From the NCBI GenBank assembly GCA_035457005.1, contig DATICB010000001.1, positions 3,246-67,245 on the forward strand: 64,000 bases of DNA. The letters are read 5' to 3'. The DNA comes from Patescibacteria group bacterium (GTDB taxonomy: Bacteria; Patescibacteriota; Microgenomatia; Levybacterales; UBA12049). The notes beneath the pieces are model-generated. The model was not told where the DNA came from and did no database searches. It saw only the letters and a list, made by a program, of their open reading frames with translations. Shown here in pieces: positions 2,736 to 52,528 of the stretch. The position numbers and the translations under genes were made by a program. The stretch's first letter is position 1, and each line of letters begins with the position of its first letter.

Positions 2736-3098
2736 TTATTTTACTTCGTTAAATTTCCCATCCAAGAGGATGTAAAAAAGGTCAACTTTTAAATGTGGAT
2801 ATTTTGCCAAAATAGTTTTTTTGGCTTTTAGTAAATCTTCTGCATGGCGCTCAGGTGTAGATTCTGCACCATATGCACCACAATTTTCATGATGCATCAG
2901 GACAACTTGTTTAATGTCATGAAGTTTAACACAAAGATCTATTTGCTTCATGACTGTGTCAAGCTCTTTTGACCCGCCTGCATAGCCGACATAATCAAAT
3001 GTTTTGTCACCAAAATTGTCATCCAACCATTTTCTAATAAATTTTTGAAATCTAAAGTCAATGCAGCTAACGACCAATGCATCACATGTGTGTGCCAT
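2736..3098 (-). CDS. short beta-carbonic-anhydrase-like protein (120 aa)
   Basis: CxDxR (VVSCIDFRF) and HxxC (MHHENCGA) motifs with beta-CA-like spacing, but the protein is much shorter than a canonical beta-CA. Confidence 0.4.
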   Translation of the reverse strand: MAHTCDALVVSCIDFRFQKFIRKWLDDNFGDKTFDYVGYAGGSKELDTVMKQIDLCVKLHDIKQVVLMHHENCGAYGAESTPERHAEDLLKAKKTILAKYPHLKVDLFYILLDGKFNEVK

Positions 3099-23965: not shown

Positions 23966-24047
23966 AAATTAACCTAATTATCTAATTGACCTAATTAACC
24001 TAAATATTTTTAGAAATTAGAAATTAGAAATTAGAAATTTTCAGGTT
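23966..24047. repeat. AT-rich intergenic element: (A)ACCTAATT x3 followed by TTAGAAA x4, ending TTTCAGG
   Basis: A near-identical architecture recurs at 41056-41179 upstream of nadE. Confidence 0.6.
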
Positions 24048-25092: not shown

Positions 25093-25443
25093 ATGTTTAG
25101 ATTTGAAACATTAACTATTTGGCAAGATGCTCGTGAATTCTCCAAAGATATTTATTTTCTCACTAAAAAATTTCCAAAAGGTGAAATGTTTAGTTTAACA
25201 AATCAACTTCGCAGAGCTGTAAATTCTATTGGAGCAAATATTGCCGAGGGCTCTGCAAGTTCTAGTTCAAAAGATTTTGCGCACTATCTTGATATTTCAG
25301 TAAAATCACTTTACGAAACAATTGCTCATTTGCAAATAGCTGAAGATCAAAAATATATTTGTTCAAAAGATAAAGAAGTACTTTATGAAAAAGCAGATAT
25401 TCTTGCACGAAAAATCAGATCTTTTCGAAAAACTTTACTCTAG
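25093..25443 (+). CDS. four-helix-bundle protein (23S rRNA intervening-sequence protein family, TIGR02436)
   Basis: FETLTIWQDAREFSKDIYFLTKKFPKGEMFSLTNQLRRAVNSIGANIAEG. Confidence 0.75.
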   Translation: MFRFETLTIWQDAREFSKDIYFLTKKFPKGEMFSLTNQLRRAVNSIGANIAEGSASSSSKDFAHYLDISVKSLYETIAHLQIAEDQKYICSKDKEVLYEKADILARKIRSFRKTLL

Positions 25444-28987: not shown

Positions 28988-29020
28988 AGTGGGATACCAT
29001 GTAGTTTTGTGTTTACATGT

Positions 29021-29093
29021 GTCACGGTTGGATAGCTCTTTGAGCATTCAACGTGACCCTGTTAGATGCGAAGCTATCTAACAGGGGAGGTGA
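29021..29093 (+). promoter_or_regulatory. conserved bipartite 5' leader (hairpin A, hairpin B, GGGGAGGTG SD), copy 1
   Basis: A is GTCACG-GTTGGATAG..CATTCAA-CGTGAC. B is CTGTTAGAT-GCGAAGC-TATCTAACAG. Then GGGGAGGTGAAAAAATATG. Confidence 0.55.
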
Positions 29094-29099
29094 AAAAAT

Positions 29100-29423
29100 A
29101 TGAATCCAATTATTTGTACAATTTGTCAAAAAACAAATCATTTACCGGAAAAACAAGTTATTGTTATGGCAAATTTTGCACAGAAGTATCAAGCAGAAAG
29201 AGCGTTATTTGATATTCAAAAATCACACATTGCTATTGTCTGGCAGAGAATTTTTGTCCGGTCAGATTTTATAACACTTATTTTGTCATTGCATGGCATA
29301 AAAGATATTGTTCATCTGCAAAGTCTTTACATTGAAAGTATGTGTCAAAATAATAATGCATTAACAATTGATGTTGTTTCGCAAAAAGTACATCAAGAAA
29401 AATTATTGTCTGCTTTGAGCTAG
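29100..29423 (+). CDS. hypothetical protein (107 aa)
   Basis: ORF with a strong SD. Confidence 0.45.
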   Translation: MNPIICTICQKTNHLPEKQVIVMANFAQKYQAERALFDIQKSHIAIVWQRIFVRSDFITLILSLHGIKDIVHLQSLYIESMCQNNNALTIDVVSQKVHQEKLLSALS

Positions 29424-29469
29424 TTTTATCTCTTGTTTTAGAGAAAAAAAGTGTGTAGTTTTAATAAAT

Positions 29470-30444
29470 ATGCTAATTGGTTTTCTCGGACTTGGGAAAA
29501 TGGGTGGCCGAATGGTGAGTAAATTATTGCAAGGCGGACACGATGTTGTGGCGTGGAATAGGTCGATAGACGTTTCAGAAGAATTTGTCAAACAATATGC
29601 TTTGAGCAAAGCGACCAGCCTGCCGGCGCGGCAGGGAAGTTCCCACATTCGTTCGAATAATATCTCCCTTGTTAAAAATATTTCTGATTTTGTTTTATTA
29701 AAAAATAAACCTCATGTTTTTTGGTCAATGGTTCAATATGGAGAACCGACCAAACAGGTTCTTTTGCAACTTCTTACTACTGCAGAAAAAGGTGATGTGG
29801 TTATTGATGGGGCAAATTCTTTTTACTTGGATACACAAAAACAGTACGAAGCATTTACTAAAAAAGGGATTCACTTTTTGGGAATTGGTGTAAGCGGGGG
29901 AATTCTGGCACCAGTCAATGGATTTCCTCTCATGGCAGGGGGATCAGAGACAGGATATAAAAAAATCCAACCAATTCTTGATACACTCAGTAAACCACAT
30001 GGAGGTCATGCGTATTTTGGGAAAGGCGGAGTTGGACATTTTATTAAAATGGTTCACAACGGCGTGGAGTACGGGATGATGCAAGCAATTGGTGAGGGAT
30101 TTGGTGTTTTGGAAAAGGGACCGTATTTGTTGGATTTGGAAAAAGTTGCAGATCTTTGGACAAAAGAGACAATTGTTTCTGGGTTCCTCATGGATTGCGC
30201 AAGAGATGCATTGGTAAAAGATCCACAACTTGCCAAGACGGCAGGATTTATAGAAGAAAATGGGGAAGCAAAATGGACAATTGCATTGGCAAAAAAGCTA
30301 CGGGTTCCAATTGAGATTATTGAAGCTTCATTACAATTTAGACAAAAATCACAAAAAAGTTTGATTATCCAAAAGTCATTTGCTGCAAAAATGGTTGCCG
30401 CCCTCAGACACGAATTTGGTGGACATAAGACAAAGGAGAAATAA
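29470..30444 (+). CDS. gnd: 6-phosphogluconate dehydrogenase (decarboxylating), short form, with an insertion after the Rossmann fold
   Basis: GFLGLGKMGGRM, HFIKMVHNGVEYGMMQAIGEG. Confidence 0.75.
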   Translation: MLIGFLGLGKMGGRMVSKLLQGGHDVVAWNRSIDVSEEFVKQYALSKATSLPARQGSSHIRSNNISLVKNISDFVLLKNKPHVFWSMVQYGEPTKQVLLQLLTTAEKGDVVIDGANSFYLDTQKQYEAFTKKGIHFLGIGVSGGILAPVNGFPLMAGGSETGYKKIQPILDTLSKPHGGHAYFGKGGVGHFIKMVHNGVEYGMMQAIGEGFGVLEKGPYLLDLEKVADLWTKETIVSGFLMDCARDALVKDPQLAKTAGFIEENGEAKWTIALAKKLRVPIEIIEASLQFRQKSQKSLIIQKSFAAKMVAALRHEFGGHKTKEK

Positions 30445-30636
30445 ATGGCCAACAAACCTAAGGAGTATGGTGTTGCACCCGATTCTCCACGAACGCAGGA
30501 TAGTGTTACTAGAAGAATAGGAGAATTAGGTGATGCAACACGGCGGAGAGGTTTGGACATTTATTCCTTTTTAAGACTCCGTCGATTGGGGCAAAAAATT
30601 GATAATGGTGATTACCATGAGGACAGATTTCATTGA
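30445..30636 (+). CDS. hypothetical small protein
   Basis: ORF only. Confidence 0.25.
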   Translation: MANKPKEYGVAPDSPRTQDSVTRRIGELGDATRRRGLDIYSFLRLRRLGQKIDNGDYHEDRFH

Positions 30637-30660
30637 CAAAAAACGTTTTATGTATATAAT
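30633..30660 (+). promoter_or_regulatory. consensus sigma70-like promoter TTGACA-16-TATAAT driving the T-box leader
   Basis: Exact consensus hexamers. Confidence 0.5.
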
Positions 30661-30852
30661 AACTGTAACGCGTTGTGGGTATCCCGCCCAATTTGTTCTT
30701 GGAAAGAGAACACGCTGACTGCGATGAGCAGATCCGAGCCACTCTCGTAAAAAGTGAAAGGTGAGTTCGAAAGAATTTACGAAGCAAGGTGGTACCACGA
30801 TTTACCTCGTCCTTGTTAAGCAGATTTCTGTTTAATGAAGACGAGTTTTTTA
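30661..30852 (+). ncRNA. T-box leader (tRNA-sensing riboswitch) upstream of proS
   Basis: AAGGTGGTACCACG at 30786-30799 matches the T-box AGGGTGGNACCGCG core. Terminator CTCGTC...GACGAG TTTTTT at 30806-30851. AGAGA and a candidate CCG specifier lie upstream. Confidence 0.65.
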
Positions 30853-30877
30853 TTGTAAAATTTGATACGATTACATT

Positions 30878-32590
30878 ATGAAATATTCACAGTTACCATT
30901 TAAGACAACAAAAACAATTGCAAAAGATTTGCAGTCAAAAAATTCACGTCTTCTTACTCAGGCTGGCTACATTCATAAGGAAATTGCAGGGGTATACACG
31001 TTTTTGCCTCTTGGACTGCGAGTTTTGAATAAAATAGAAGCGATTATTCGTGAGGAGATGGATACGATTTCTGCAGAGCTTTTTATGCCTTCATTGGCAC
31101 CAATTGCTCACTGGGAAAAAACAAAACGATTCCACAGTGTTGATGTGCTCATGAAGACAACACCTGCAAATGAAAAAGCCAGACTAAAAAACGATACAGA
31201 ATATGTCCTGAGCCCAACACACGAAGATATGGTCACACCGCTTGTGCAAGAATTTGTCCATTCATACAAAGATTTACCAGTTGCGGTGTATCAAATTCAA
31301 ACAAAATTTAGAAACGAGCCTCGTGCAAAATCAGGACTACTGAGGTGTCGTGAATTTCGTATGAAAGATTTGTATTCATTCCACATGAACGAAGAGGATT
31401 TAAAAAGATACTACGAAATTGTAAAAGAAGTATATTTTCGAGTTTTTGAAAAATTAGGTCTTAAGCATGGACTATTTCTTACCTTAGCATCTGGTGGTGA
31501 TTTTACGAAAGATTACTCGCATGAGTTTCAGGTTGTCTGTGATGCTGGGGAGGATATTATTTTCCATGTAAAAAGCAAAAATCTTACCTTTAATCGCGAG
31601 GTTGCGCCAAGTATGGCGCCAACTATGGATCAGCACGATGAGGAAGAAAAACCACTTGCCGAAATAGAAGGTGTTGGCATGATTGGAGTAGAAGAGGTGG
31701 CAAAACACATAGGAATTACTGTTGAGCAAACAACAAAAACACTTCTTTTTGAAGATGAAAATCACCATATTATCGCGGCAACAGTCAGGGGTGGATATGA
31801 CGTGAACGAGGAGAAATTGCAAAAAATTGCAGGAGTCGGCTCGCTTACTTTGGCTTCTGCAGAAACAGTAAAGAAAGTTACTGGTGCAGAAGTTGGGTAT
31901 GCGGGACTTCTGAATTTACCAAAAGACGTAAAAATATTTATGGATGAATCACTGAAAGGAAGACGTAATTTTGAAATGGGAGCAAACAAAACAGGGTTTC
32001 ATTCAATGAATGTTAATTTTGGAAGAGATTTACCAGAACCAGAGACATTTTACGATCTTAAGACTGCCAAAGAAGGCGACAAATATCCTGAAACAGGTGA
32101 AGTATATGAAGTGTATAAAGCAGCAGAAGTTGGTAATATTTTTCCACTCAATGTAAAATTTTCCGAAAGCTTTGGGTTTACCTACATAGATGAAAAAGGT
32201 CAAAAAATGCCAATTTATATGGGAAGTTACGGTATTGGCCCATCCCGAGTTATGGGAGTAATTGTTGAGAAGTTTGCCGACGAAAAAGGGCTTATTTGGC
32301 CTCATAATATTGCACCGTATACGGTTCATCTCATCTCCCTTAACGCACATGATAAGGCAGGCATGTTGTACAAAACGTTGGAGCAAGAAGGAGTCGAGAT
32401 ATTTTATGATGACCGCGGTAATGCGTCTGCTGGAGAAAAATTTGCAGATGCAGACCTTATGGGTATGCCGGTTCGTTTAGTTATTAGTGGCAAAACAGGA
32501 GACAGTGTTGAATGGAAAGAGCGGGGTAAAGAAAATAGTGAGTTGATAAGTGTTGAAGAAGTAATTACCCGTTTAAAAAGAGCTCATTGA
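30878..32590 (+). CDS. proS: prolyl-tRNA synthetase
   Basis: Class II aaRS motifs FRNEPRAK..REFRMKDLYSF and a C-terminal anticodon-binding region. Confidence 0.85.
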   Translation: MKYSQLPFKTTKTIAKDLQSKNSRLLTQAGYIHKEIAGVYTFLPLGLRVLNKIEAIIREEMDTISAELFMPSLAPIAHWEKTKRFHSVDVLMKTTPANEKARLKNDTEYVLSPTHEDMVTPLVQEFVHSYKDLPVAVYQIQTKFRNEPRAKSGLLRCREFRMKDLYSFHMNEEDLKRYYEIVKEVYFRVFEKLGLKHGLFLTLASGGDFTKDYSHEFQVVCDAGEDIIFHVKSKNLTFNREVAPSMAPTMDQHDEEEKPLAEIEGVGMIGVEEVAKHIGITVEQTTKTLLFEDENHHIIAATVRGGYDVNEEKLQKIAGVGSLTLASAETVKKVTGAEVGYAGLLNLPKDVKIFMDESLKGRRNFEMGANKTGFHSMNVNFGRDLPEPETFYDLKTAKEGDKYPETGEVYEVYKAAEVGNIFPLNVKFSESFGFTYIDEKGQKMPIYMGSYGIGPSRVMGVIVEKFADEKGLIWPHNIAPYTVHLISLNAHDKAGMLYKTLEQEGVEIFYDDRGNASAGEKFADADLMGMPVRLVISGKTGDSVEWKERGKENSELISVEEVITRLKRAH

Positions 32591-33303
32591 GAAAGAAATG
32601 GGAGAGAATACCCAAAGAATTTTACCCAAAACACTGCATAGACTACTAAAAAAGCAAAAGCACCAAAAATAAGAATCAGCGGAGAAAATCCTTTCCCTTT
32701 TACTTTTGCAGCTGCAACAGGACTTCCGCCATTACCTATTTTTATTGTTTCTGTTTCATGAGGAACAATATGCGGCATGCTCATTGTTGCACTCATAGAA
32801 TCCATAGGAGAAGCATTTGTTGGCGTTGGAGTTGTAGGTGTTGCTGTTTGCGCATCATCTGTTGTTGGCGTCATAGGTGATGGAGGAGTCGGCTCAGAAG
32901 CAGGTATTGGATTACCAGGGAGTGTTATGGGCGTGTCCATAGAGGGACTTGTGGGAGGTGTAGATGGCGGCGTTGGCATTACTGGTGTTACGGGGTTGTC
33001 TGCCGGCATTTCTGGTGCAGATGGCATTGTTGGACTTTGCATAGGGTCTGCCGGTGTTGGGGAAGGCATAGTAGGCGATGGTACTGGCGTCGGTTCTGCT
33101 GGTGAAATAGGCGGTGTCTGAGAAGCAGGGTCCTGCGTTGGTGTTGTCGGTGATGGTGAGGTAGGTGTTTGAGAAGGTGTTGCGGAAAGATTTGTCCCCA
33201 TAACACGGTCGTAGACTTCTTGTAATTTGGGGTCTAGTGGTTGATTGCTGTTTTGTTTGGGATCCATGTATACATAATCTCGAATCTTATACTCGTTTGT
33301 CAA
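32584..33303 (-). CDS. Pro/Thr/Ser-rich protein with a C-terminal TM anchor
   Basis: Low-complexity PT-rich ORF with a C-terminal hydrophobic helix. Confidence 0.5.
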   Translation of the reverse strand: MTNEYKIRDYVYMDPKQNSNQPLDPKLQEVYDRVMGTNLSATPSQTPTSPSPTTPTQDPASQTPPISPAEPTPVPSPTMPSPTPADPMQSPTMPSAPEMPADNPVTPVMPTPPSTPPTSPSMDTPITLPGNPIPASEPTPPSPMTPTTDDAQTATPTTPTPTNASPMDSMSATMSMPHIVPHETETIKIGNGGSPVAAAKVKGKGFSPLILIFGAFAFLVVYAVFWVKFFGYSLPFLSQ

Positions 33304-33368
33304 GTTTCAACTTGTTTACCTTTTAATCCAGAGCGCATAAGACTTGGGCTATTTGCTATAATTGCATT

Positions 33369-34286
33369 ATGCACGTTATTATTACCCACGCATCTCCTGA
33401 CTGGGACGCAATTGGTTCTGTTTGGATTTTAAAGCGATTTTTGCCAGGATGGGAGAATGCAAAAGTGGAATTTGTCCCGGCAGGTAATCGGAGCCCACGC
33501 GTTTTACGAAAAGAAAAAGAAGCAGATACACAAGTCGTCGTAGAATCTGATGACACAAAAATAATTCACGTCGATACTGGGCTTACTCCTTTAGATCATC
33601 ATCAAATTTATGATACCAATGTCTGTTCAACAAGTAGATGTTGGGACTATGTTGCCCGCGAAAATCCCAATCTTCATGCAACAACATCGGACACAAAAAG
33701 AGACGATAAAATTGTTGCGATGGAGCGAATCGTTAGCTACATTGTTGCGCTGGATCATTTTCAGGAAATTTTTTGGCCAGACGCTGGATCTGACATTCAC
33801 GAGTTTAGTCTCTATGGCATTTTAGAGGGAATGAAGGGACTTCATCCTGACGATGATGACTATTTTGTGAGTTGGGGAATGGATATTTTGGATGCAATGC
33901 TCAAACGATTTGAGAGCAGAGTTTGGGCAGAAAAAGAAATTGCAAAAGGGAAAGAATTTAGTACGAAGTGGGGAAAGGCAATTGCGATTGAGACAATCAA
34001 TGATAGTGTGATTAAGCTTGCGCAAAAAATGGGATATGTTGTGGTTGTCAGACGTGATCCGCGAAAAGGATATGTGCGAATTAAAGCAGTTCCATTTAAA
34101 GAAGGGGTGACTCCAAATGTTAATTTAAGCCTTGTGCATAATCAGCTCGAAAAAATGGATCCAGAGGCAACGTGGTTTCTTCATGTCTCCAATAAAATGC
34201 TTCTTAATGGCACGCCAAAAAACCCAAAAATGGTACCAACAAAACTTTCTTTAGAGCAGATTGTTTCGGTTTTGGAAAAGATATAA
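33369..34286 (+). CDS. DHH family phosphoesterase (NrnA-like)
   Basis: ITHASPDWDAIGS and LTPLDHHQ motifs. Confidence 0.65.
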   Translation: MHVIITHASPDWDAIGSVWILKRFLPGWENAKVEFVPAGNRSPRVLRKEKEADTQVVVESDDTKIIHVDTGLTPLDHHQIYDTNVCSTSRCWDYVARENPNLHATTSDTKRDDKIVAMERIVSYIVALDHFQEIFWPDAGSDIHEFSLYGILEGMKGLHPDDDDYFVSWGMDILDAMLKRFESRVWAEKEIAKGKEFSTKWGKAIAIETINDSVIKLAQKMGYVVVVRRDPRKGYVRIKAVPFKEGVTPNVNLSLVHNQLEKMDPEATWFLHVSNKMLLNGTPKNPKMVPTKLSLEQIVSVLEKI

Positions 34287-34288
34287 GT

Positions 34289-34363
34289 GTCATCGCGAGT
34301 TTGCCTGCTGGCAACGTGGCGATCTTTAAAAGATTGCTTCGTCACTACGTTCCTCGCAATGAC
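34289..34363. repeat. R1 element, intergenic copy filling the gap between DHH and HIT
   Basis: GTCATCGCGAG...GATTGCTTCGTCACTACGTTCCTCGCAATGAC. Confidence 0.7.
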
Positions 34364-34370
34364 AAAATCT

Positions 34371-34694
34371 ATGGATAGCTGTATTTTCTGCAAAATTGCG
34401 AGTCATATTGAACCCAAAAGCTTTACTTACGAAGACGAAGACATTATGGTTTTTCCAGACACGCATCCTGTTAAGCCTGTTCATCTTCTTATTGTTCCTA
34501 AAAAGCACTATAAAGATTTCATAGAGCTTAGTGACGCTGTTTTGTGGAATAAGATTCGGGAAGTTGCCCAGAAACTTGTTGGTCAGTTTGATCTAGCAGA
34601 TAAAGGCTTTCGCATCTCAATTAATGGCGGTGGGGCACAAAAAATTGACCATTTGCATGTTCACCTCATGGGACCAATGGGAAAGATGGTATAA
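34371..34694 (+). CDS. HIT family protein
   Basis: HLHVHLMG histidine triad. The start was taken at MDSC, downstream of the repeat. Confidence 0.75.
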   Translation: MDSCIFCKIASHIEPKSFTYEDEDIMVFPDTHPVKPVHLLIVPKKHYKDFIELSDAVLWNKIREVAQKLVGQFDLADKGFRISINGGGAQKIDHLHVHLMGPMGKMV

Positions 34695-34742
34695 GGAAAA
34701 GTGTTGTGGAATTTGTTTTACATAGCTTTTTTAGCGAGACAG

Positions 34743-34770
34743 GATCCTTCGTTTCACTCAGGATGACATG
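34743..34770. repeat. R3 hairpin-unit repeat, reverse orientation
   Basis: CAGGATCCTTCGTTTCACTCAGGATGAC. Confidence 0.55.
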
Positions 34771-34794
34771 AATTTGTTTATAATTATACAAAAT

Positions 34795-34826
34795 CATGTC
34801 ACTTTTCCACATTTTTGTGATATAAT
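34795..34826 (+). promoter_or_regulatory. extended -10 promoter (TGaTATAAT)
   Basis: TGATATAAT at 34818-34826, upstream of the rpsU leader. Confidence 0.35.
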
Positions 34827-34848
34827 TAACCACGCTACATAACAAAGG

Positions 34849-34925
34849 GCCACAGTTAGATAGGCTGAGGCCATCTAGCGTGGTTCCATTGGATGCTCCA
34901 AGGAGCTATGCAATAGGAGGAGGTG
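34849..34925 (+). promoter_or_regulatory. conserved bipartite 5' leader, copy 2 (upstream of rpsU)
   Basis: A is GCCAC-AGTTAGATAG..CATCTAGC-GTGG. B-like is TTGGATGC..AGCTATGCAATAGG. Then AGGAGGAGGTG. Confidence 0.5.
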
Positions 34926-34937
34926 TTTATTTAATTT

Positions 34938-35138
34938 ATGGTAATTGTCGTAAAACAACCAGGTGATTCGGATGATGCAGTCATTCGAAAATTTACAAAA
35001 AAAGTAATGGATGCAGGTATCGTTCAGCAAGCAAAGCGTTTGCAATTTTACCTAAAGCCTTCAGCCGCACGTGCACAAAAAAAGCAAGATAATAGAAAAG
35101 CACGACTCCTGAAAAAGTCCATCAAAGCAACAATATAA
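34938..35138 (+). CDS. rpsU: 30S ribosomal protein S21
   Basis: 66 aa; RKFTKKV..AGIV..KR..FY.KPS..R..K S21 pattern. Confidence 0.75.
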   Translation: MVIVVKQPGDSDDAVIRKFTKKVMDAGIVQQAKRLQFYLKPSAARAQKKQDNRKARLLKKSIKATI

Positions 35139-35524
35139 TGAATGATGTAAGCGTTTTGTTATTTGTCGAAAGCAGATACAAAGTTAACCGCCGTCGCATA
35201 CGAAGAGCTGTTGAAAAAGTGTTGTATGATCAGCATGTTGCAGGCCCCGTAGAGGTAAGTATTGCGATTATTGGCGACCGCAAAATGCGCGAATTATCCA
35301 AAAAATACAAAGGCGAGGATAAAACGCGAAACATTCTGAGTTTTTCTTTGGCAGAGGGGAGTCCAACAGTATTGCCAACAGATAAACTCCGCCTTGGCGA
35401 TATTGTTATTTCGTATCCATATCTTATTAAAGAAGCAGCGCAATTTGATGAATTGGTCGACGATCGCATGGACATGCTTGTTAGCCATGGTATGTTGCAT
35501 CTTTTGGGCGTTCACCACGAATAG
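35138..35524 (+). CDS. ybeY: endoribonuclease YbeY
   Basis: HGMLHLLGVHHE metal-binding motif. Confidence 0.8.
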   Translation: MNDVSVLLFVESRYKVNRRRIRRAVEKVLYDQHVAGPVEVSIAIIGDRKMRELSKKYKGEDKTRNILSFSLAEGSPTVLPTDKLRLGDIVISYPYLIKEAAQFDELVDDRMDMLVSHGMLHLLGVHHE

Positions 35525-35584
35525 AAAAGACAGAGTTTGTTCCATTTCCAATTGTGTGCTTTTGTAGTATTCTAGGAAAGCTTT

Positions 35585-37072
35585 ATGGTCTTCTATAGAA
35601 AATATCGATCACAAACAATCGCAGAGCTCGACAGCCCCAAATTACGCGAAACTCTCTATGCTGTTTTATCTCAGAAAGAGATCCCTCACGCATTTCTTTT
35701 TACCGGACCAAAAGGTTTGGGCAAGACATCAACCGCTCGCATTATTGCGAAAGTGCTTAATTGTACCGCGACAAAACGCGACGGCATTGAGCCGTGTAAT
35801 ACATGCGACCAGTGTGTGTCGATTACCAATGGGAATAACATTGACGTGTTGGAAATTGATGGTGCATCCAATCGTGGCATTGATGAAATACGCGATTTAC
35901 GGGAAAAAGTTAATTTAGCACCGTCGAGTGCAAAAAAGAAAGTGTACATTATTGACGAAGTTCACATGCTCACAACCGAGGCATTTAATGCGCTGTTAAA
36001 AACAATTGAAGAGCCACCAAGTCATGTTGTTTTTATTTTCGCCACAACAGAGCCGCAAAAAGTGCCAGCAACTATTATTTCTCGCTGTTTTCATGTACGT
36101 TTGGCAAAAGCAACGAAAGAAGAGCTTGTTCATGCGCTCAACCGAATTGTAAAAGGTGAAAAATTGAGTATTGAGCCAGGCGTTTTGGACGCAATTGCGG
36201 AAATGGGTGATGGTGGATATCGTGATGCAACAAAGATTTTGGAAGAATTGGTCGCACTTTCTCAAGGCAAAAAAATAACACAAGAATTATTTGAATCTCT
36301 ATTTAAAACAGCACATATAACATCGTTTGTTCAAAAATTTCTGCAGCATGTTGCAAAAAAAAATGCGAAAGAAGCATTGGCTGTTTTGCAGGCTTTATCG
36401 GACGAAGGGACTGATGTTAAATTATTTTTATATCAAGTGTTGGTTGCGTTACATGAGGAATTTTTGCAGTTGGCAAGTAAGGCTGATTCAGATTCATTCT
36501 TTTCACTGACCGATTTGCAGCTCTTGCTGCCTCTTTTGGAAGATGCGTATCAAGAAACAAAATATGCCGTTATTGCAAGCTTGCCATTAGAATTGGTAGT
36601 TGTGCAGTATTGCTCATCGTCCGTTGTTCCTGGAGACCAAGCGACTCCAGAATCTCAAGAAAAATCTTTAAGCCAGGATGATAATAGTAAAAAGTCAGGT
36701 TTGACTATGCAGGACATGCTTAAAAAAGAGCAAATAATAAAGGTAAATCAGGTGCTGCATCCTGTGAAGCCTGAAGAAAAAAAGAAAGCTGAGAGCACTC
36801 ATGTCCAGGAAAATTTACCAAAAGACGTAAAAGACGCAAGTGTTCTTATGGAAAATCTTATTTATAAAGTAAAACCATACAATCATTCTGTTGCGGGAGT
36901 CTTGCGAGGATGTGCTATTGCATCTAGGACTGATGAATCAATTGTTTTTGCAACCGCATACGCATTTCATAAAGAAAAATTGGAAGAGCAAAAAATTAAA
37001 GAAATTCTCCAGCAAGTTGTTCGCGAGGTAACTGGTAAAAATTTGAAGGTAATGGTAGAATTGAAAAAATAG
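35585..37072 (+). CDS. dnaX: DNA polymerase III subunit gamma/tau
   Basis: FLFTGPKGLGKTSTARIIAK, CNTCDQC Zn module, IIDEVHML. Confidence 0.85.
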   Translation: MVFYRKYRSQTIAELDSPKLRETLYAVLSQKEIPHAFLFTGPKGLGKTSTARIIAKVLNCTATKRDGIEPCNTCDQCVSITNGNNIDVLEIDGASNRGIDEIRDLREKVNLAPSSAKKKVYIIDEVHMLTTEAFNALLKTIEEPPSHVVFIFATTEPQKVPATIISRCFHVRLAKATKEELVHALNRIVKGEKLSIEPGVLDAIAEMGDGGYRDATKILEELVALSQGKKITQELFESLFKTAHITSFVQKFLQHVAKKNAKEALAVLQALSDEGTDVKLFLYQVLVALHEEFLQLASKADSDSFFSLTDLQLLLPLLEDAYQETKYAVIASLPLELVVVQYCSSSVVPGDQATPESQEKSLSQDDNSKKSGLTMQDMLKKEQIIKVNQVLHPVKPEEKKKAESTHVQENLPKDVKDASVLMENLIYKVKPYNHSVAGVLRGCAIASRTDESIVFATAYAFHKEKLEEQKIKEILQQVVREVTGKNLKVMVELKK

Positions 37073-37089
37073 CAATGCATTTAGTGATT

Positions 37090-37161
37090 GCTACAGTTAG
37101 ATAGTCCTTTGGACATCTAGCGTAGCCCCGTTAGATGCAAAGCTATCTAACGGGGGAGGTG
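37090..37161 (+). promoter_or_regulatory. conserved bipartite 5' leader, copy 3 (upstream of ybaB)
   Basis: A is GCTAC-AGTTAGATAG..CATCTAGC-GTAGC. B is CCGTTAGAT-GCAAAGC-TATCTAACGG. Then GGGGGAGGTGAA. Confidence 0.55.
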
Positions 37162-37172
37162 AATTACTGATT

Positions 37173-37457
37173 ATGTTTAATCCATTTCAACAATTAGGAG
37201 ATTTAAAGAAAATGCGCGACCAGGCAATGCAAATTCAAAAAGCGCTGCAAGCCGAGCAAATTACTGTAGAAAAATCAGGTGTTACTGTTGTTATGACAGG
37301 AGATCAGAAAGTTGTTTCTATTTCGAGTAACGGAAGATCGGACAATGACATTAAAGATTGTCTAAATGAAGCAATTAAAAAATCTCAAGAAATAGCAGCA
37401 AAAAAATTAGCACAAATGGGTGGCGGTTTGGGTGGGCTTATGGGAGGAGGCAATTAA
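37173..37457 (+). CDS. ybaB: nucleoid-associated protein YbaB/EbfC
   Basis: Length and pattern (central beta region, Gly-rich tail) fit YbaB; position between dnaX and recR. Confidence 0.7.
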   Translation: MFNPFQQLGDLKKMRDQAMQIQKALQAEQITVEKSGVTVVMTGDQKVVSISSNGRSDNDIKDCLNEAIKKSQEIAAKKLAQMGGGLGGLMGGGN

Positions 37458-38405: not shown

Positions 38406-39077
38406 ATGAAAATTCCACGAGCAGTACAAAATCTTATTGAGTCGTTTGAAAAACTGCCTGGCGTTGGGCCAAAGTCTGCTCAGCGGCTTACGTTTTATTT
38501 ACTGCATGTCCCACAAGGCGAATTGGATACCTTTGCAAAAAGCCTAACAGAGCTAAAAACAGGCACCAAATTGTGCTCTATTTGCATGTCAATTGACGAA
38601 ACAGACCCATGCTCAATTTGCTCGGATGGCCTTCGGGATCACGCAACAATTTGTGTTGTCGAGCAGCCTTTGGATGTCTTGGCTTTGGAAAAATCAGGAA
38701 CCTATAAAGGAATCTATCACGTGCTACACGGGAGAATTGATCCACTCAATAATTTGGGGCCAGATGAGATTTATGTGGGGAAGTTATTCGACAGGATAAA
38801 AAATTCTTCTTCGAGCAAGCCTAGCGAATCGAGAAGTCTTGAGGAAAGTTCTCGACTTCGCTCGAACGAGAACACTCATATTAAAGAAATAATTCTAGCT
38901 ACCAATCCTACCATGGAAGGCGAGGCAACAGCAATGTATATTACCAAACAATTAAAAGCATTAGGTTTTGCTGGTGCTATAACAAGAATTGGAAGAGGTT
39001 TGCCGGTTGGTGCGGATTTGGAATATGCAGACGAAATTACTTTGCAGCGCGCTATGGAAGGCAGAAGCGAAGTATAA
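38406..39077 (+). CDS. recR: recombination protein RecR with an in-frame R2-derived insertion
   Basis: LPGVGPKSAQRL, C-x2-C...C-x2-C zinc finger, Toprim region. Confidence 0.85.
   Translation: MKIPRAVQNLIESFEKLPGVGPKSAQRLTFYLLHVPQGELDTFAKSLTELKTGTKLCSICMSIDETDPCSICSDGLRDHATICVVEQPLDVLALEKSGTYKGIYHVLHGRIDPLNNLGPDEIYVGKLFDRIKNSSSSKPSESRSLEESSRLRSNENTHIKEIILATNPTMEGEATAMYITKQLKALGFAGAITRIGRGLPVGADLEYADEITLQRAMEGRSEV
38804..38875. repeat. R2 element plus palindromic extension, in frame in recR
   Basis: TTCTTCTTCGAGCAAGCCTAGCGAATCGAGAAG..., translated NSSSSKPSESRSLEESSRLRS. Confidence 0.6.
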
Positions 39078-41055: not shown

Positions 41056-41179
41056 AATTAACCTAATTCACCTAATTAACCTAATTTCTAAATAAGCACC
41101 AATAAATCAAATTTTAGAAATTGGAACTCAGGAATTATTTAGGTCAATTAGAAATTAGAATAATTAGAAATTTTAGGAT
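41056..41179. repeat. AT-rich intergenic element (ACCTAATT repeats ... TTAGAAATT repeats ... TTTTAGG), second copy
   Basis: Shares ordered blocks with the element at 23966-24047. Confidence 0.6.
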
Positions 41180-42007
41180 ATGTTTGACTTAGATTACACA
41201 AAAAAAGCACAAGAAATTCAGGATTGGATTGCCACAACAGTGCGTAGTGCAGGATTTGAAAAAGTTATTTTGGCAGTGTCTGGTGGTGTGGACAGCGCTG
41301 TATCGCTTAGTCTAGCAGTAAAGGCATTGGGAAAAGAAAATGTGTACGCAGTACTTTTGCCATATGGAACATTAAGTTCGGCTTCACTTGAACATGGAAA
41401 ATTGGTTGTTGAGTCTGCTGGTCTTCCAAAAGATCATGTGTTTGTCCGCGATATCCAATCAGGAGTTGATAAGCTATGGTCTGTCATTGCGAACGAAGCG
41501 AAGCAATCTGATACAAATGACGAGATTGCCGCGTCGCAAGCTCCTCGCAATGACACTTCAATTCGCCGAGGCAATATGATGGCAAGAGTGCGCATGATAT
41601 ATTTATTTGATTTGGCAAAAAGCTTGGGGGCGTTAGTTGTTGGAACAGAAAATAAAAGTGAGCATTATTTGGGCTATTTTACGCGTTTTGGAGACGAAGC
41701 ATCGGACATAGAACCAATTCGATCGTTATACAAAACACAAGTGTGGGAAATGGCAAAAAGCTTGGGAGTTCCGAAAGAAATTATCGAGAAAAAACCTTCT
41801 GCAGGGCTTTGGGAAAATCAATCAGATGAAGGAGAATTTGGTTTTTCTTATACAGATGCAGACAAAGTGTTGTATTTTTCTTTTGAAGAAAAAAAATCTC
41901 AAGAAGAAATAATTGCCTTAGGGTTTGATAAAAAATTAGTAGAAAATGTCTTGGGCTTTGCTCGCAAAAATGATTTTAAACACCACGTTCCATACATTTT
42001 TGAATAA
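41180..42007 (+). CDS. nadE: NH3-dependent NAD+ synthetase with an in-frame R1 insertion
   Basis: VILAVSGGVDSAV, RRGNMMARVRM. Confidence 0.85.
   Translation: MFDLDYTKKAQEIQDWIATTVRSAGFEKVILAVSGGVDSAVSLSLAVKALGKENVYAVLLPYGTLSSASLEHGKLVVESAGLPKDHVFVRDIQSGVDKLWSVIANEAKQSDTNDEIAASQAPRNDTSIRRGNMMARVRMIYLFDLAKSLGALVVGTENKSEHYLGYFTRFGDEASDIEPIRSLYKTQVWEMAKSLGVPKEIIEKKPSAGLWENQSDEGEFGFSYTDADKVLYFSFEEKKSQEEIIALGFDKKLVENVLGFARKNDFKHHVPYIFE
41483..41553. repeat. R1 element in frame in nadE
   Basis: GTCATTGCGAACGAAGCGAAGCAATC...GATTGCCGCGTCGCAAGCTCCTCGCAATGAC, translated VIANEAKQSDTNDEIAASQAPRND. Confidence 0.75.
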
Positions 42008-44381: not shown

Positions 44382-44567
44382 ATGATTGGGGAGACCGATG
44401 AAGAAATTGTGGCAAGAACACCTACAGTAAGTTTTGTCACCAGACTTTTGCAAAGAAGGTTGCAAAAAATGGAAGCGGGAAAAATTGTGGAGAATGGATC
44501 AGGCTCAGATGGTTCTGTAAAAGCAGCAGGAAGTCAAGACAGGCCGGGAAAAAGAAGACAAGCATAA
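44382..44567 (+). CDS. hypothetical small protein
   Basis: Strong SD AAAGGAGGT 7 nt upstream of the ATG. Confidence 0.4.
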   Translation: MIGETDEEIVARTPTVSFVTRLLQRRLQKMEAGKIVENGSGSDGSVKAAGSQDRPGKRRQA

Positions 44568-52472: not shown

Positions 52473-52528
52473 GGCATTTGATTTTCTCTGTCAAAACGCT
52501 ATGCTACAAAGGGGAGGTGAATTTTTAA

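Follow-up and report, generated by a model that had tools for sequence, protein, structure and literature searches.

The repetitive extragenic palindromic (REP) sequences of Escherichia coli and Pseudomonas, with the bacterial interspersed mosaic elements (BIMEs) and the REP doublets forming hairpins (REPINs), are mobilised as doublets by the REP-associated tyrosine transposases (RAYTs), which belong to the Y1-HUH type. REP hairpins form in single-stranded DNA or in mRNA and can affect mRNA stability, and new copies insert into or beside old ones. Hairpins recognised in single-stranded form are also present in the insertion sequences (ISs) of the IS200/IS605 type, where transposition of the single strand is guided by pairing of the bases at the hairpin foot, which read a short target beside which insertion takes place; the subterminal imperfect palindrome of IS608 has the form CCCC-TAGC..GCTA-T-GGGG. 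REPINs are inverted doublets of REP sequences, and compensatory changes are common in them (PMC3116915). Here we analyse two-hairpin elements found in a 64,000-nt stretch (the window) of the genome of a Patescibacteria group bacterium (contig DATICB010000001.1, positions 3,246 to 67,245), where they stand before rpsU, ybaB and a hypothetical open reading frame (ORF) named ORF107. These elements are probably copies of a non-autonomous palindromic repeat, similar to REP/REPIN sequences or to MITEs (miniature inverted-repeat transposable elements), and not a conserved leader of the genes that they precede. This interpretation is built on the structure of the elements, their dispersal, their absence from orthologous sites, their presence or absence in strains and the insertion signs of the hairpin unit, all of which are counted as observed.

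The window contains three of these elements, hereafter doublets, with a length of approximately 66–70 nt (positions 29021–29086, 34849–34918 and 37090–37155). The three are intergenic, and each one directly adjoins a GGAGGTG Shine-Dalgarno (SD) sequence, with the start codon 6–12 nt further on. The first-pass annotation of the window had placed three copies with a shared order of parts at these sites, and this is borne out by the sequence. The parts of the doublets and the features related to them are the following (L numbers denote loci outside the window).

29021–29057, plus strand: copy 1, hairpin A, GTCAC-G-GTTGGAT-A-GCTC/TTT/GAGC-ATTCAAC-GTGAC (outer stem GTCAC/GTGAC, bulged G, 7-bp stem GTTGGAT/ATTCAAC, bulged A, inner stem GCTC/GAGC)
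29058–29086, plus strand: copy 1, hairpin B, CCT-GTTAGAT-GC/GAA/GC-T-ATCTAAC-A-GGG, with the 3' G-run continuing into the SD
29086–29093, plus strand: SD at copy 1, GGAGGTGA, native to the conserved hypothetical ORF 29100–29423 (ATG at 29100) and outside the repeat
28993–29084, plus strand: segment that varies between strains, made up of 28 nt and the doublet; L196/L197 have 58 unrelated nt instead
34849–34884, plus strand: copy 2 (rpsU), hairpin A, GCCAC-A-GTTAGAT-A-GGC TGAG GCC-ATCTAGC-GTGGT
34885–34918, plus strand: copy 2, hairpin B variant, TCC-ATTGGAT-GCTCC AA GGAGC-T-ATGCAAT-A-GGA, near-identical to hairpin B of L033
34919–34925, plus strand: SD at copy 2, GGAGGTG, native to rpsU (ATG at 34938); GGAGGTGTTT is kept in relatives that lack the doublet
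34818–34826, plus strand: extended -10 promoter-like box TGnTATAAT, about 22 nt upstream of copy 2, as read from the sequence
37090–37126, plus strand: copy 3 (dnaX-ybaB spacer), hairpin A, GCTAC-A-GTTAGAT-A-GTCC TTT GGAC-ATCTAGC-GTAGC
37127–37155, plus strand: copy 3, hairpin B, CCC-GTTAGAT-GC AAA GC-T-ATCTAAC-GGGG
37155–37162, plus strand: SD at copy 3, GGAGGTGA, native to ybaB (ATG at 37173) and present in essentially all of the 79 orthologous loci that lack the doublet
52497–52521, plus strand: possible 5'-truncated remnant, GCTATGCTACAAAGGGGAGGTGAA, before a 64-aa ORF; unproven

Hairpin A opens with an outer stem of 4–5 bp that differs between copies (GTCAC/GTGAC, GCCAC/GTGGT, GCTAC/GTAGC). 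After it come a bulged purine and a 7-bp stem, of which GTTGGAT/ATTCAAC and GTTAGAT/ATCTAGC are the two forms, then a bulged A and, again with differences between copies, an inner stem (GCTC/GAGC, GGC/GCC, GTCC/GGAC). Hairpin B adjoins it without spacer and has the form CCY-GTTAGAT-GC-loop-GC-T-ATCTAAC-(N)-GGG, with the last Gs entering the GGAGGTG. It shows the reverse-complement architecture of hairpin A, the bulged A of the 5' strand in A corresponding to a bulged T on the 3' strand in B. Inspection confirmed the compensatory changes that had been listed earlier for the three copies; hairpin B of the rpsU copy, which had been taken as degenerate, turned out to be a well-paired variant with a longer inner stem and one G.G mismatch. 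One 22-mer of hairpin B occurs twice in the window versus 0.00 expected occurrences, and three of the five GGAGGTG sequences of the window are located at doublets.

In order to assess the structure, the three copies were folded and compared with dinucleotide shuffles. Copies 1, 2 and 3 had minimum free energies (MFE) of -34.7, -38.8 and -37.9 kcal/mol; the corresponding z-scores were -5.5, -4.7 and -5.4. In copies 1 and 3 the single-sequence MFE fold contains both hairpins, with the SD core unpaired; GGAGGTGA is free in the centroid folds of these copies as well as in the MFE folds. The MFE fold of copy 2 is a different structure and not the two hairpins, with part of the SD region paired in a very stable helix, and the two-hairpin fold of this copy rests on manual pairing, on its match to the covariance model (70.4 bits) and on the covariation counts. 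The latter were obtained from an alignment of 13 copies, namely the three of the window plus ten doublets from other genomes. Standard pairs occupy 98.2% of the cells of this alignment, and double-sided compensatory changes affect 16 of the 26 base pairs. The observed covariation was not reached in any of 500 shuffles, and pairing falls to ~35% when the 3' partners are slid. A covariance model built on the doublets matched exactly the three sites in the 64 kb of the window, with E-values of ~1e-13 to 1e-15. The first-pass annotation holds with regard to the covariation, and the two-hairpin structure is genuine.

Wobble pairs are distributed asymmetrically. On the gene-sense strand of the aligned doublets 11 G.U and no A.C were counted, or 9 and none when only the copies oriented by an SD are considered. 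This asymmetry is not expected for a site in duplex DNA and indicates that the hairpins matter as single strands in the mRNA sense. The 5' strand of the outer stem of hairpin B covaries with the first nucleotides of the SD region (CCC/GGG versus TCC/GGA). The only conserved unpaired nucleotides are the two single bulges, the loops being free, and no alternative pairing with the SD is conserved across the aligned copies. The perfect extended -10 box upstream of the rpsU doublet, together with the location of copy 3 between dnaX and ybaB, makes it very likely that the elements are transcribed: the TGnTATAAT at 34818–34826 would place the copy 2 doublet inside the 5' untranslated region (UTR) of rpsU, and -10-like boxes lie 10–25 nt upstream of several doublet copies. 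The elements therefore lie within what is predicted to be 5' UTR or intercistronic RNA, and the transcript most likely contains them in folded form. Since compensatory changes have also been documented in REPINs, covariation by itself cannot separate a repeat from a leader; it is what a REP/REPIN-type repeat would show and is no demonstration of a dedicated riboregulator. Of the functional RNA structure proposed in the first-pass annotation, the structure, its covariation and the wobbles confined to G.U on the sense strand are supported; the hairpin unit, on the other hand, is dispersed beside unrelated genes in many phyla and has signs of insertion, and no dedicated riboregulator was shown.

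One important question is whether the doublets belong to the genes that follow them, as the description of a conserved leader had implied. A metagenome scan with YbaB provided 80 related loci (YbaB identity 53–91%), 79 of them covering the ybaB upstream region. No doublet was detected upstream of ybaB in any of these 79 loci, nor upstream of rpsU in the 32 of the YbaB loci that include this gene. The closest ybaB relative (91%) reads TAA-GGAGGTGA-N6-ATG. When the covariance model R1 was run on 273 kb of related DNA, no copy was found except in L115, a strain with ~97% nucleotide identity to the window, which keeps the ybaB copy. The third gene, ORF107 (29100–29423), is located between zwf and gnd and encodes a conserved hypothetical protein with nine homologues (51–98% identity) and no Pfam family; its gene neighbourhood is the same in L196 and L199, and the exact-sequence look-up of the S21 and ORF107 proteins gave no record. 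In L196 and L197, which represent a near-identical strain, the sequence matches the window by 98.8% up to position 28992 and by 99.7% from 29085 on, and between these points there are 58 unrelated nt versus the 28 nt plus doublet of the window. From this comparison, the doublet is evidently dispensable at ORF107 in a 99%-identical strain.

The same comparisons settled the status of the SD, which had been described as an extended SD and counted among the parts of the element. The SD of ORF107 is present without doublet in L196 and L198, and those of rpsU and ybaB are likewise kept in the relatives that lack the doublet. Because this holds for all three genes, the SDs are native and GGGGAGGTGAA lies outside the repeat. 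A further copy of the 3' half of hairpin B plus SD had been proposed at 52497–52520, before a gene labelled DUF1059. This segment has no match to the model and no fold (z = +1.3), its likeness extends to ~10 nt beyond the SD, and the label could not be confirmed, the 64-aa ORF downstream being without Pfam match.

Other inserts were observed at the site of doublet 1 in more distant relatives. A palindromic insert of the type gtcatcctgagcagagcgaaggatctc...gagattcttcacttcgttcagaatgac is present in L199/L200 (~2870–2960), and this repeat type also flanks hairpin units in WOR-3 genome bins. A GCCGCGA...TCGCGGC hairpin insert is present in L198 (~230–300).

Outside the window, doublets scoring >55 bits were only found in genome bins of Woesebacteria and other Patescibacteria, some of these bins being labelled Gammaproteobacteria. 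From this distribution, together with the divergent housekeeping proteins of the window, a placement of the window in Patescibacteria near Woesebacteria seems likely. Their 7-bp stems are drawn from the repertoire GTTAGAT, GTTGGAT, ATTGGAT, GTGAAGT and GTGAGAT, and the modules are combined as in a mosaic: hairpin B of copy 2 resembles that of L033, and hairpin A of copy 1 resembles that of the second L042 doublet. All 15 doublets are located in 5' leaders or spacers in the sense orientation, and neither 3' ends nor the spaces between convergent genes yielded any. Of the 15, 11 are joined to an SD, the start codon following 5–12 nt beyond; in all of these the CCC/GGG hairpin is the one next to the SD, and the one with the 5-bp outer stem stands farther away. 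The SD gives these 11 an independent orientation, whereas that of the remaining four comes from small differences in model score, which lean to the training orientation. One of these four overlaps the 5' end of tmRNA by 2 nt (L052, 1363–1422), another is directly 5' of a cobalamin riboswitch (L042, 3312–3381), and the remaining two are in an rRNA operon, ~50–60 nt from the 3' end of the 16S and from the 5' end of the 23S gene (L035, 601–664 and 4490–4560), with estimates of ~55 nt behind the 16S and ~50 nt ahead of the 23S. Towards its 3' end, the 16S gene of L035 also seems to hold an insertion of ~640 nt that includes an ORF of 201 aa.

The individual hairpin is much more widely dispersed than the doublet. 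The prototype of this unit is CCCC-GTTAGAT-GC..GC-T-ATCTAAC-GGGG (~28–35 nt). Its outer stem, C-rich on one side and G-rich on the other, is followed by a bulge of 1 nt and by a 7-bp stem of the type GUKRRRU/AYYYMAC, for which GTTAGAT/ATCTAAC is the prototype; after another 1-nt bulge come a GC clamp and a free loop. A search of species-representative genomes with the exact arms of hairpin B and a free loop of 2–8 nt gave 114 loci beside unrelated genes, versus ~30 chance matches by our own estimate under uniform base composition. The genome bins carry ~20 phylum-level labels, including Woese-, Sacchari-, Sung-, Kaiser-, Jorgensen-, Berkel- and Colwellbacteria, WOR-3, Ignavibacteria, Planctomycetes, Omnitrophota, Aerophobetes, Stahlbacteria, Cloacimonadota, Nitrospirota, Elusimicrobia and others, and several copies often occur in one bin. 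An outer stem of at least 3 bp was present in 104 of the 114 loci and CCC on its 5' side in 88, neither of which was demanded by the search pattern. The pattern had no match in viral contigs. Among the 137 proteins flanking the 114 units, 150 different Pfam families were counted, none of them enriched, and no transposase was present. In other phyla units are found in both orientations, and some are followed by T-runs, resembling terminators.

Signs of insertion accompany the unit. Of 112 units, 13 are bordered by direct repeats ≥5 nt long, in most cases GTNAA, versus 1.3 expected from permutation of the flanks. At L025 (3904–3936) the otherwise intact gene of a HepT (DUF86) toxin is broken by an in-frame insert of 33 nt, which consists of a unit and a TGAA duplication and contains two stop codons; when the 33 nt are removed, positions 1–119 of the 120 of the Pfam profile are matched in one stretch. 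In-frame translational bypass of this insert was considered and rejected, since a multiple of three results from the commonest unit length only; it is regarded as a plain insertion. At L055 the unit arms enclose a non-coding insert of 84 nt. Dispersal, flanking repeats and the insertion in HepT are, taken together, the marks of a small mobile palindromic repeat.

Larger repeated structures around the unit were seen in Saccharibacteria and unclassified bins (L010, L036, L048 and L026), where TTCA, the unit and CGGGTAG stand, in this order, between the two strands of a covarying outer helix. Hence other repeat families may contain the unit as a nested element or as one of their parts.

Compared with REP sequences and REPINs, the elements described here share the short imperfect palindromes with a bulged base, the extragenic location, the multiple copies, the inverted doublets with compensatory changes and the variation in presence or absence between related genomes, which was seen for the doublets of the window. 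They differ in that the GTAG/CGTC tag is lacking (the flanks are CCCC/GGGG or GTCNC/GNGAC, and GTAGC appears in copy 3 only), in that no RAYT gene was revealed by a crude motif scan (HUH plus Y..NP) of the window and 195 loci, and in the far lower copy number. In addition, the core is common to many phyla whereas REPs are species-specific, the doublets are 5' of genes and fused to an SD whereas REPs are mostly found at 3' ends, and the single units have 5-bp direct-repeat flanks, which HUH transposition does not produce. With MITEs that influence expression outwards, such as the Correia elements of Neisseria, RUP and BOX of Streptococcus and ERIC, the common traits are terminal inverted repeats, insertion near gene starts, co-transcription with the neighbouring gene (here very likely) and RNA hairpins; their target-site duplication has a possible counterpart here in the direct repeats around single units. 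MITEs measure 100–150 bp as opposed to the 28–35 bp of the units and the 66–72 bp of the doublets, whose interior is a loop and for which no parent IS is known. With IS200/IS605 hairpins the unit shares the CCCC/GGGG foot and the T bulge on the 3' strand, but no tnpA or tnpB is located between or near the hairpins, and the two hairpins are inverted instead of having the same orientation.

The small dispersed repeats (SDR) of cyanobacteria (Elhai et al. 2008, cited in PMC3116915) and the Rickettsia palindromic elements are also mobile palindromes of a few tens of bases that can land inside genes or structured RNAs without obvious transposase. They constitute another sequence family with another host range. 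An SD-abutting oriented doublet is not known to have been described among them. Finally, the 5' stabilisers and insulators (the ompA 5' UTR, those of Bacillus and the RiboJ type) resemble the doublets in that a stable hairpin, placed at or close to the 5' end of the transcript, immediately precedes an accessible SD; they are gene-specific or engineered, whereas the doublets form a dispersed repeat family with a conserved stem sequence. Generic effects of this kind, that is, protection of the 5' end and insulation of the SD, are the most plausible ones for transcribed hairpins.

The translation signals of the window have to be taken into account when the association with SDs is considered. Of the 70 ORFs with 100 aa or more, 27 have a TAnnnT box ending 4–11 nt before the start codon, versus 12% of random positions, and examples of this leaderless type are the starts at 3098 (minus strand), 3530, 33369, 40378 and 58367. 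An SD core was found in 6 of the 70 genes, versus a background of 6%. Strong SDs are limited to a few genes, namely rpsU, ybaB, ORF107, prs and the small ORFs at 44382 and 52529. This suggests that expression in this genome is largely leaderless. Under leaderless expression, an insertion separating promoter and start would be tolerated at SD-led genes only, which would explain part of the association; the exact fusion to the G-run and the fixed orientation are left unexplained by such tolerance. They point either to insertion guided by a CCC foot and a GGG target or to selection on the RNA.

The strong SD of rpsU deserves a separate comment. The gene (34919–35138) keeps the very strong SD GGAGGAGGTG despite the SD-poor genome, and so it does in all 32 relatives. 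It recalls the autoregulation through bS21 and the anti-SD that is known in Bacteroidia.

If the elements are indeed a mobile palindromic repeat, the doublet of Patescibacteria would arise from two units in inverted arrangement. Doublets would then be inserted, or swapped by recombination, into short untranslated spacers, just 5' of the G-run of the next functional RNA; in the window this target segment would be the strong native SD of three among the few SD-led genes. They would be transcribed and fold in the mRNA leaving the SD free, and any effect on expression, such as protection of the 5' end from exonucleases or insulation of the SD, would be a by-product or a later co-option and not specific to the gene. 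Their spread would depend on an enzyme acting in trans. A candidate is an HUH/RAYT-like single-strand transposase guided by the CCC/GGG foot, and a DDE transposase may be proposed as an alternative, given the 5-bp duplications around single units.

Several observations weigh against the interpretation as a mobile repeat. Neither a RAYT-like ORF, in the scan mentioned above, nor an autonomous element or parent IS with the same arms, among the units, was found. Exact cores number 1–7 per genome and the doublets three per 64 kb in this window, not the hundreds typical of REPs, and no target-site duplication was detected at the three doublets of the window. The placement of all 15 doublets is far from random. 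This sense-leader placement and the complete G.U bias suggest either selection acting on the RNA or a highly specific mechanism of insertion, and they leave room for a genuine leader function.

A combined possibility can be envisaged tentatively, and we consider it rather unlikely: that the ~28-bp unit is an ultra-small mobile element crossing phyla and leaving 5-bp duplications, and that its Patescibacterial doublet is a dedicated portable 5'-leader module. Such a module, always in sense orientation and joined to the initial Gs of an SD, tmRNA or riboswitch or placed in rRNA spacers, could have arrived by site-specific insertion guided by CCC:GGG pairing, or be retained for protecting, processing or insulating the 5' end of the RNA, or for a put-like action on RNA polymerase. 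Slightly more doubtful is the main alternative to the mobile repeat, in which the doublet is in essence a portable functional leader RNA; it could stabilise or insulate the transcript, be processed by an RNase specific for double strands, or act on RNA polymerase as a pair of stem-loops like put; the put RNAs of HK022 have a size and a two-hairpin layout that resemble those of the doublet. This explanation would account for the fusion of 13 of the 15 doublets to a G-run (SD, tmRNA 5' end or riboswitch), the other two being in rRNA spacers, for the wobble counts, for the covariation of the outer stem of hairpin B with the SD region and for the -10-like boxes upstream of several copies. It is at odds with the dispensability of the doublet at ORF107, with its absence from orthologous ybaB and rpsU leaders and with the restriction of conserved unpaired nucleotides to two bulges, and also with the behaviour of the unit, which occurs inside a gene, looks like a terminator by its T-runs and takes both orientations in other phyla. 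Moreover, for four of the 15 doublets the sense orientation derives from the model scores, which favour the training orientation.

The hypotheses that tie the elements to gene control fare worse. A post-transcriptional regulon, in which an RNA-binding protein on the bulged GUUAGAU hairpins would co-control translation of rpsU, ybaB and ORF107, is improbable. Variable loops are combined with a conserved stem sequence and conserved bulges, as in a helix that binds a protein, and the element adjoins the SD. However, these genes have unrelated functions, close relatives and a near-identical strain lack the element, and it also precedes tmRNA and a riboswitch and is present in rRNA spacers; the folds predicted for copies 1 and 3 leave the SD core unpaired, and hairpins with A and U bulges on opposite strands would not both suit a single RNA-binding site. 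The operator palindrome put forward in the first-pass annotation, at which a dimeric transcription factor would bind TTAGAT-N-ATCTAA, is very improbable. Each doublet does offer four inverted-repeat half-site pairs near promoters, but the half-sites are spaced from 8 to >19 bp, and by 84 bp in L055, and the intervening sequence is itself selected for pairing, as the compensatory inner stems attest. Furthermore, a G.U pair is an A.C mismatch on the other strand and is meaningless in duplex DNA, and copy 3 lies within an operon, downstream of dnaX. The RNA thermometer, or SD-sequestering switch, that had also been thought conceivable is the least credible of all. Hairpin B ends in a G-run overlapping the first bases of the SD, and the predicted MFE fold of copy 2 pairs part of the SD region; against this, GGAGGTGA is unpaired in copies 1 and 3, no alternative pairing of the SD is conserved across copies, and hairpins of ~-35 kcal/mol in total are far too stable to melt in the physiological temperature range.

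Some other candidates were considered and rejected. In integron attC sites the consensus order is 5'-RYYYAAC ... GTTRRRY-3' (R'' before R'); the arms of the unit fit the consensus letters but in the reversed order GTTAGAT...ATCTAAC, and the units are far shorter than attC. A promoter within hairpin B, with TATCTA as -10, was discarded in the absence of a conserved final T and of a -35 or TG element, and the promoter scan was empty there. Extended pairing with the 3' end of the 16S rRNA was discarded because the capable arm, AUCUAAC, is on the wrong side of the SD, and a self-cleaving ribozyme because no unpaired core is conserved. The SD as a component of the repeat was ruled out by the comparison with relatives. 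A search of the window and 35 loci against Rfam 15, with gathering and E-value thresholds, left the element unmatched and only found tRNA, tmRNA, rRNA and one cobalamin riboswitch, in agreement with the initial remark that no known leader was recognised. A full-text literature search on the hairpin arms and on RNA motifs, REP and MITE in Patescibacteria found nothing relevant.

Other repeats were noticed in the window and its relatives. A second structured repeat of ~110 nt (CCGCC...ctattcgt.cacggctcacggagcg...GGCGG...aagaa.t.cta plus a hairpin) is located directly upstream of the SD of rpsU and/or ybaB in L135, L191, L153, L124, L134, L157, L170, L185 and L186, with near-identical copies before both genes in L135; it has no match in Rfam. 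The recR gene of the window (38406–39077) carries an in-frame palindromic insertion of 72 nt at 38805–38876 (…GCGAATCGAGAAGT…AGTTCTCGACTTCGC…), which is absent from the 97%-identical L115, so that RecR has 199 aa in this strain and 223 aa in the window. Tandem arrays at 23967–24039 and 41056–41172, upstream of tsf (24048) and of the gene at 41180, consist of the 9-mer AATTAACCT repeated 3–4 times followed by four copies of the heptamer TTAGAAA/AATTAGA, and similar TTAGAAA arrays are present in L199/L200. Positions 25093–25443 encode, in a housekeeping neighbourhood, a protein of the 23S rRNA-intervening-sequence/four-helix-bundle family (PF05635, E = 2e-33).

If the interpretation as a mobile palindromic repeat is correct, these sites should be annotated as members of a repeat family rather than pursued as a riboregulator, and covariation among copies of a palindromic repeat is, alone, no proof of a regulatory RNA. 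The family would be unusual in three respects, namely a 7-bp stem with its bulge that recurs across ~20 phylum-level labels, an extreme smallness, and a strict 5'-leader orientation in Patescibacteria. The latter are uncultivated hosts with tiny genomes, in which almost no regulatory RNAs or repeats are known. Within them, the doublets could serve as markers of strain variation and as a natural example of hairpin insulators placed before ribosome-binding sites.

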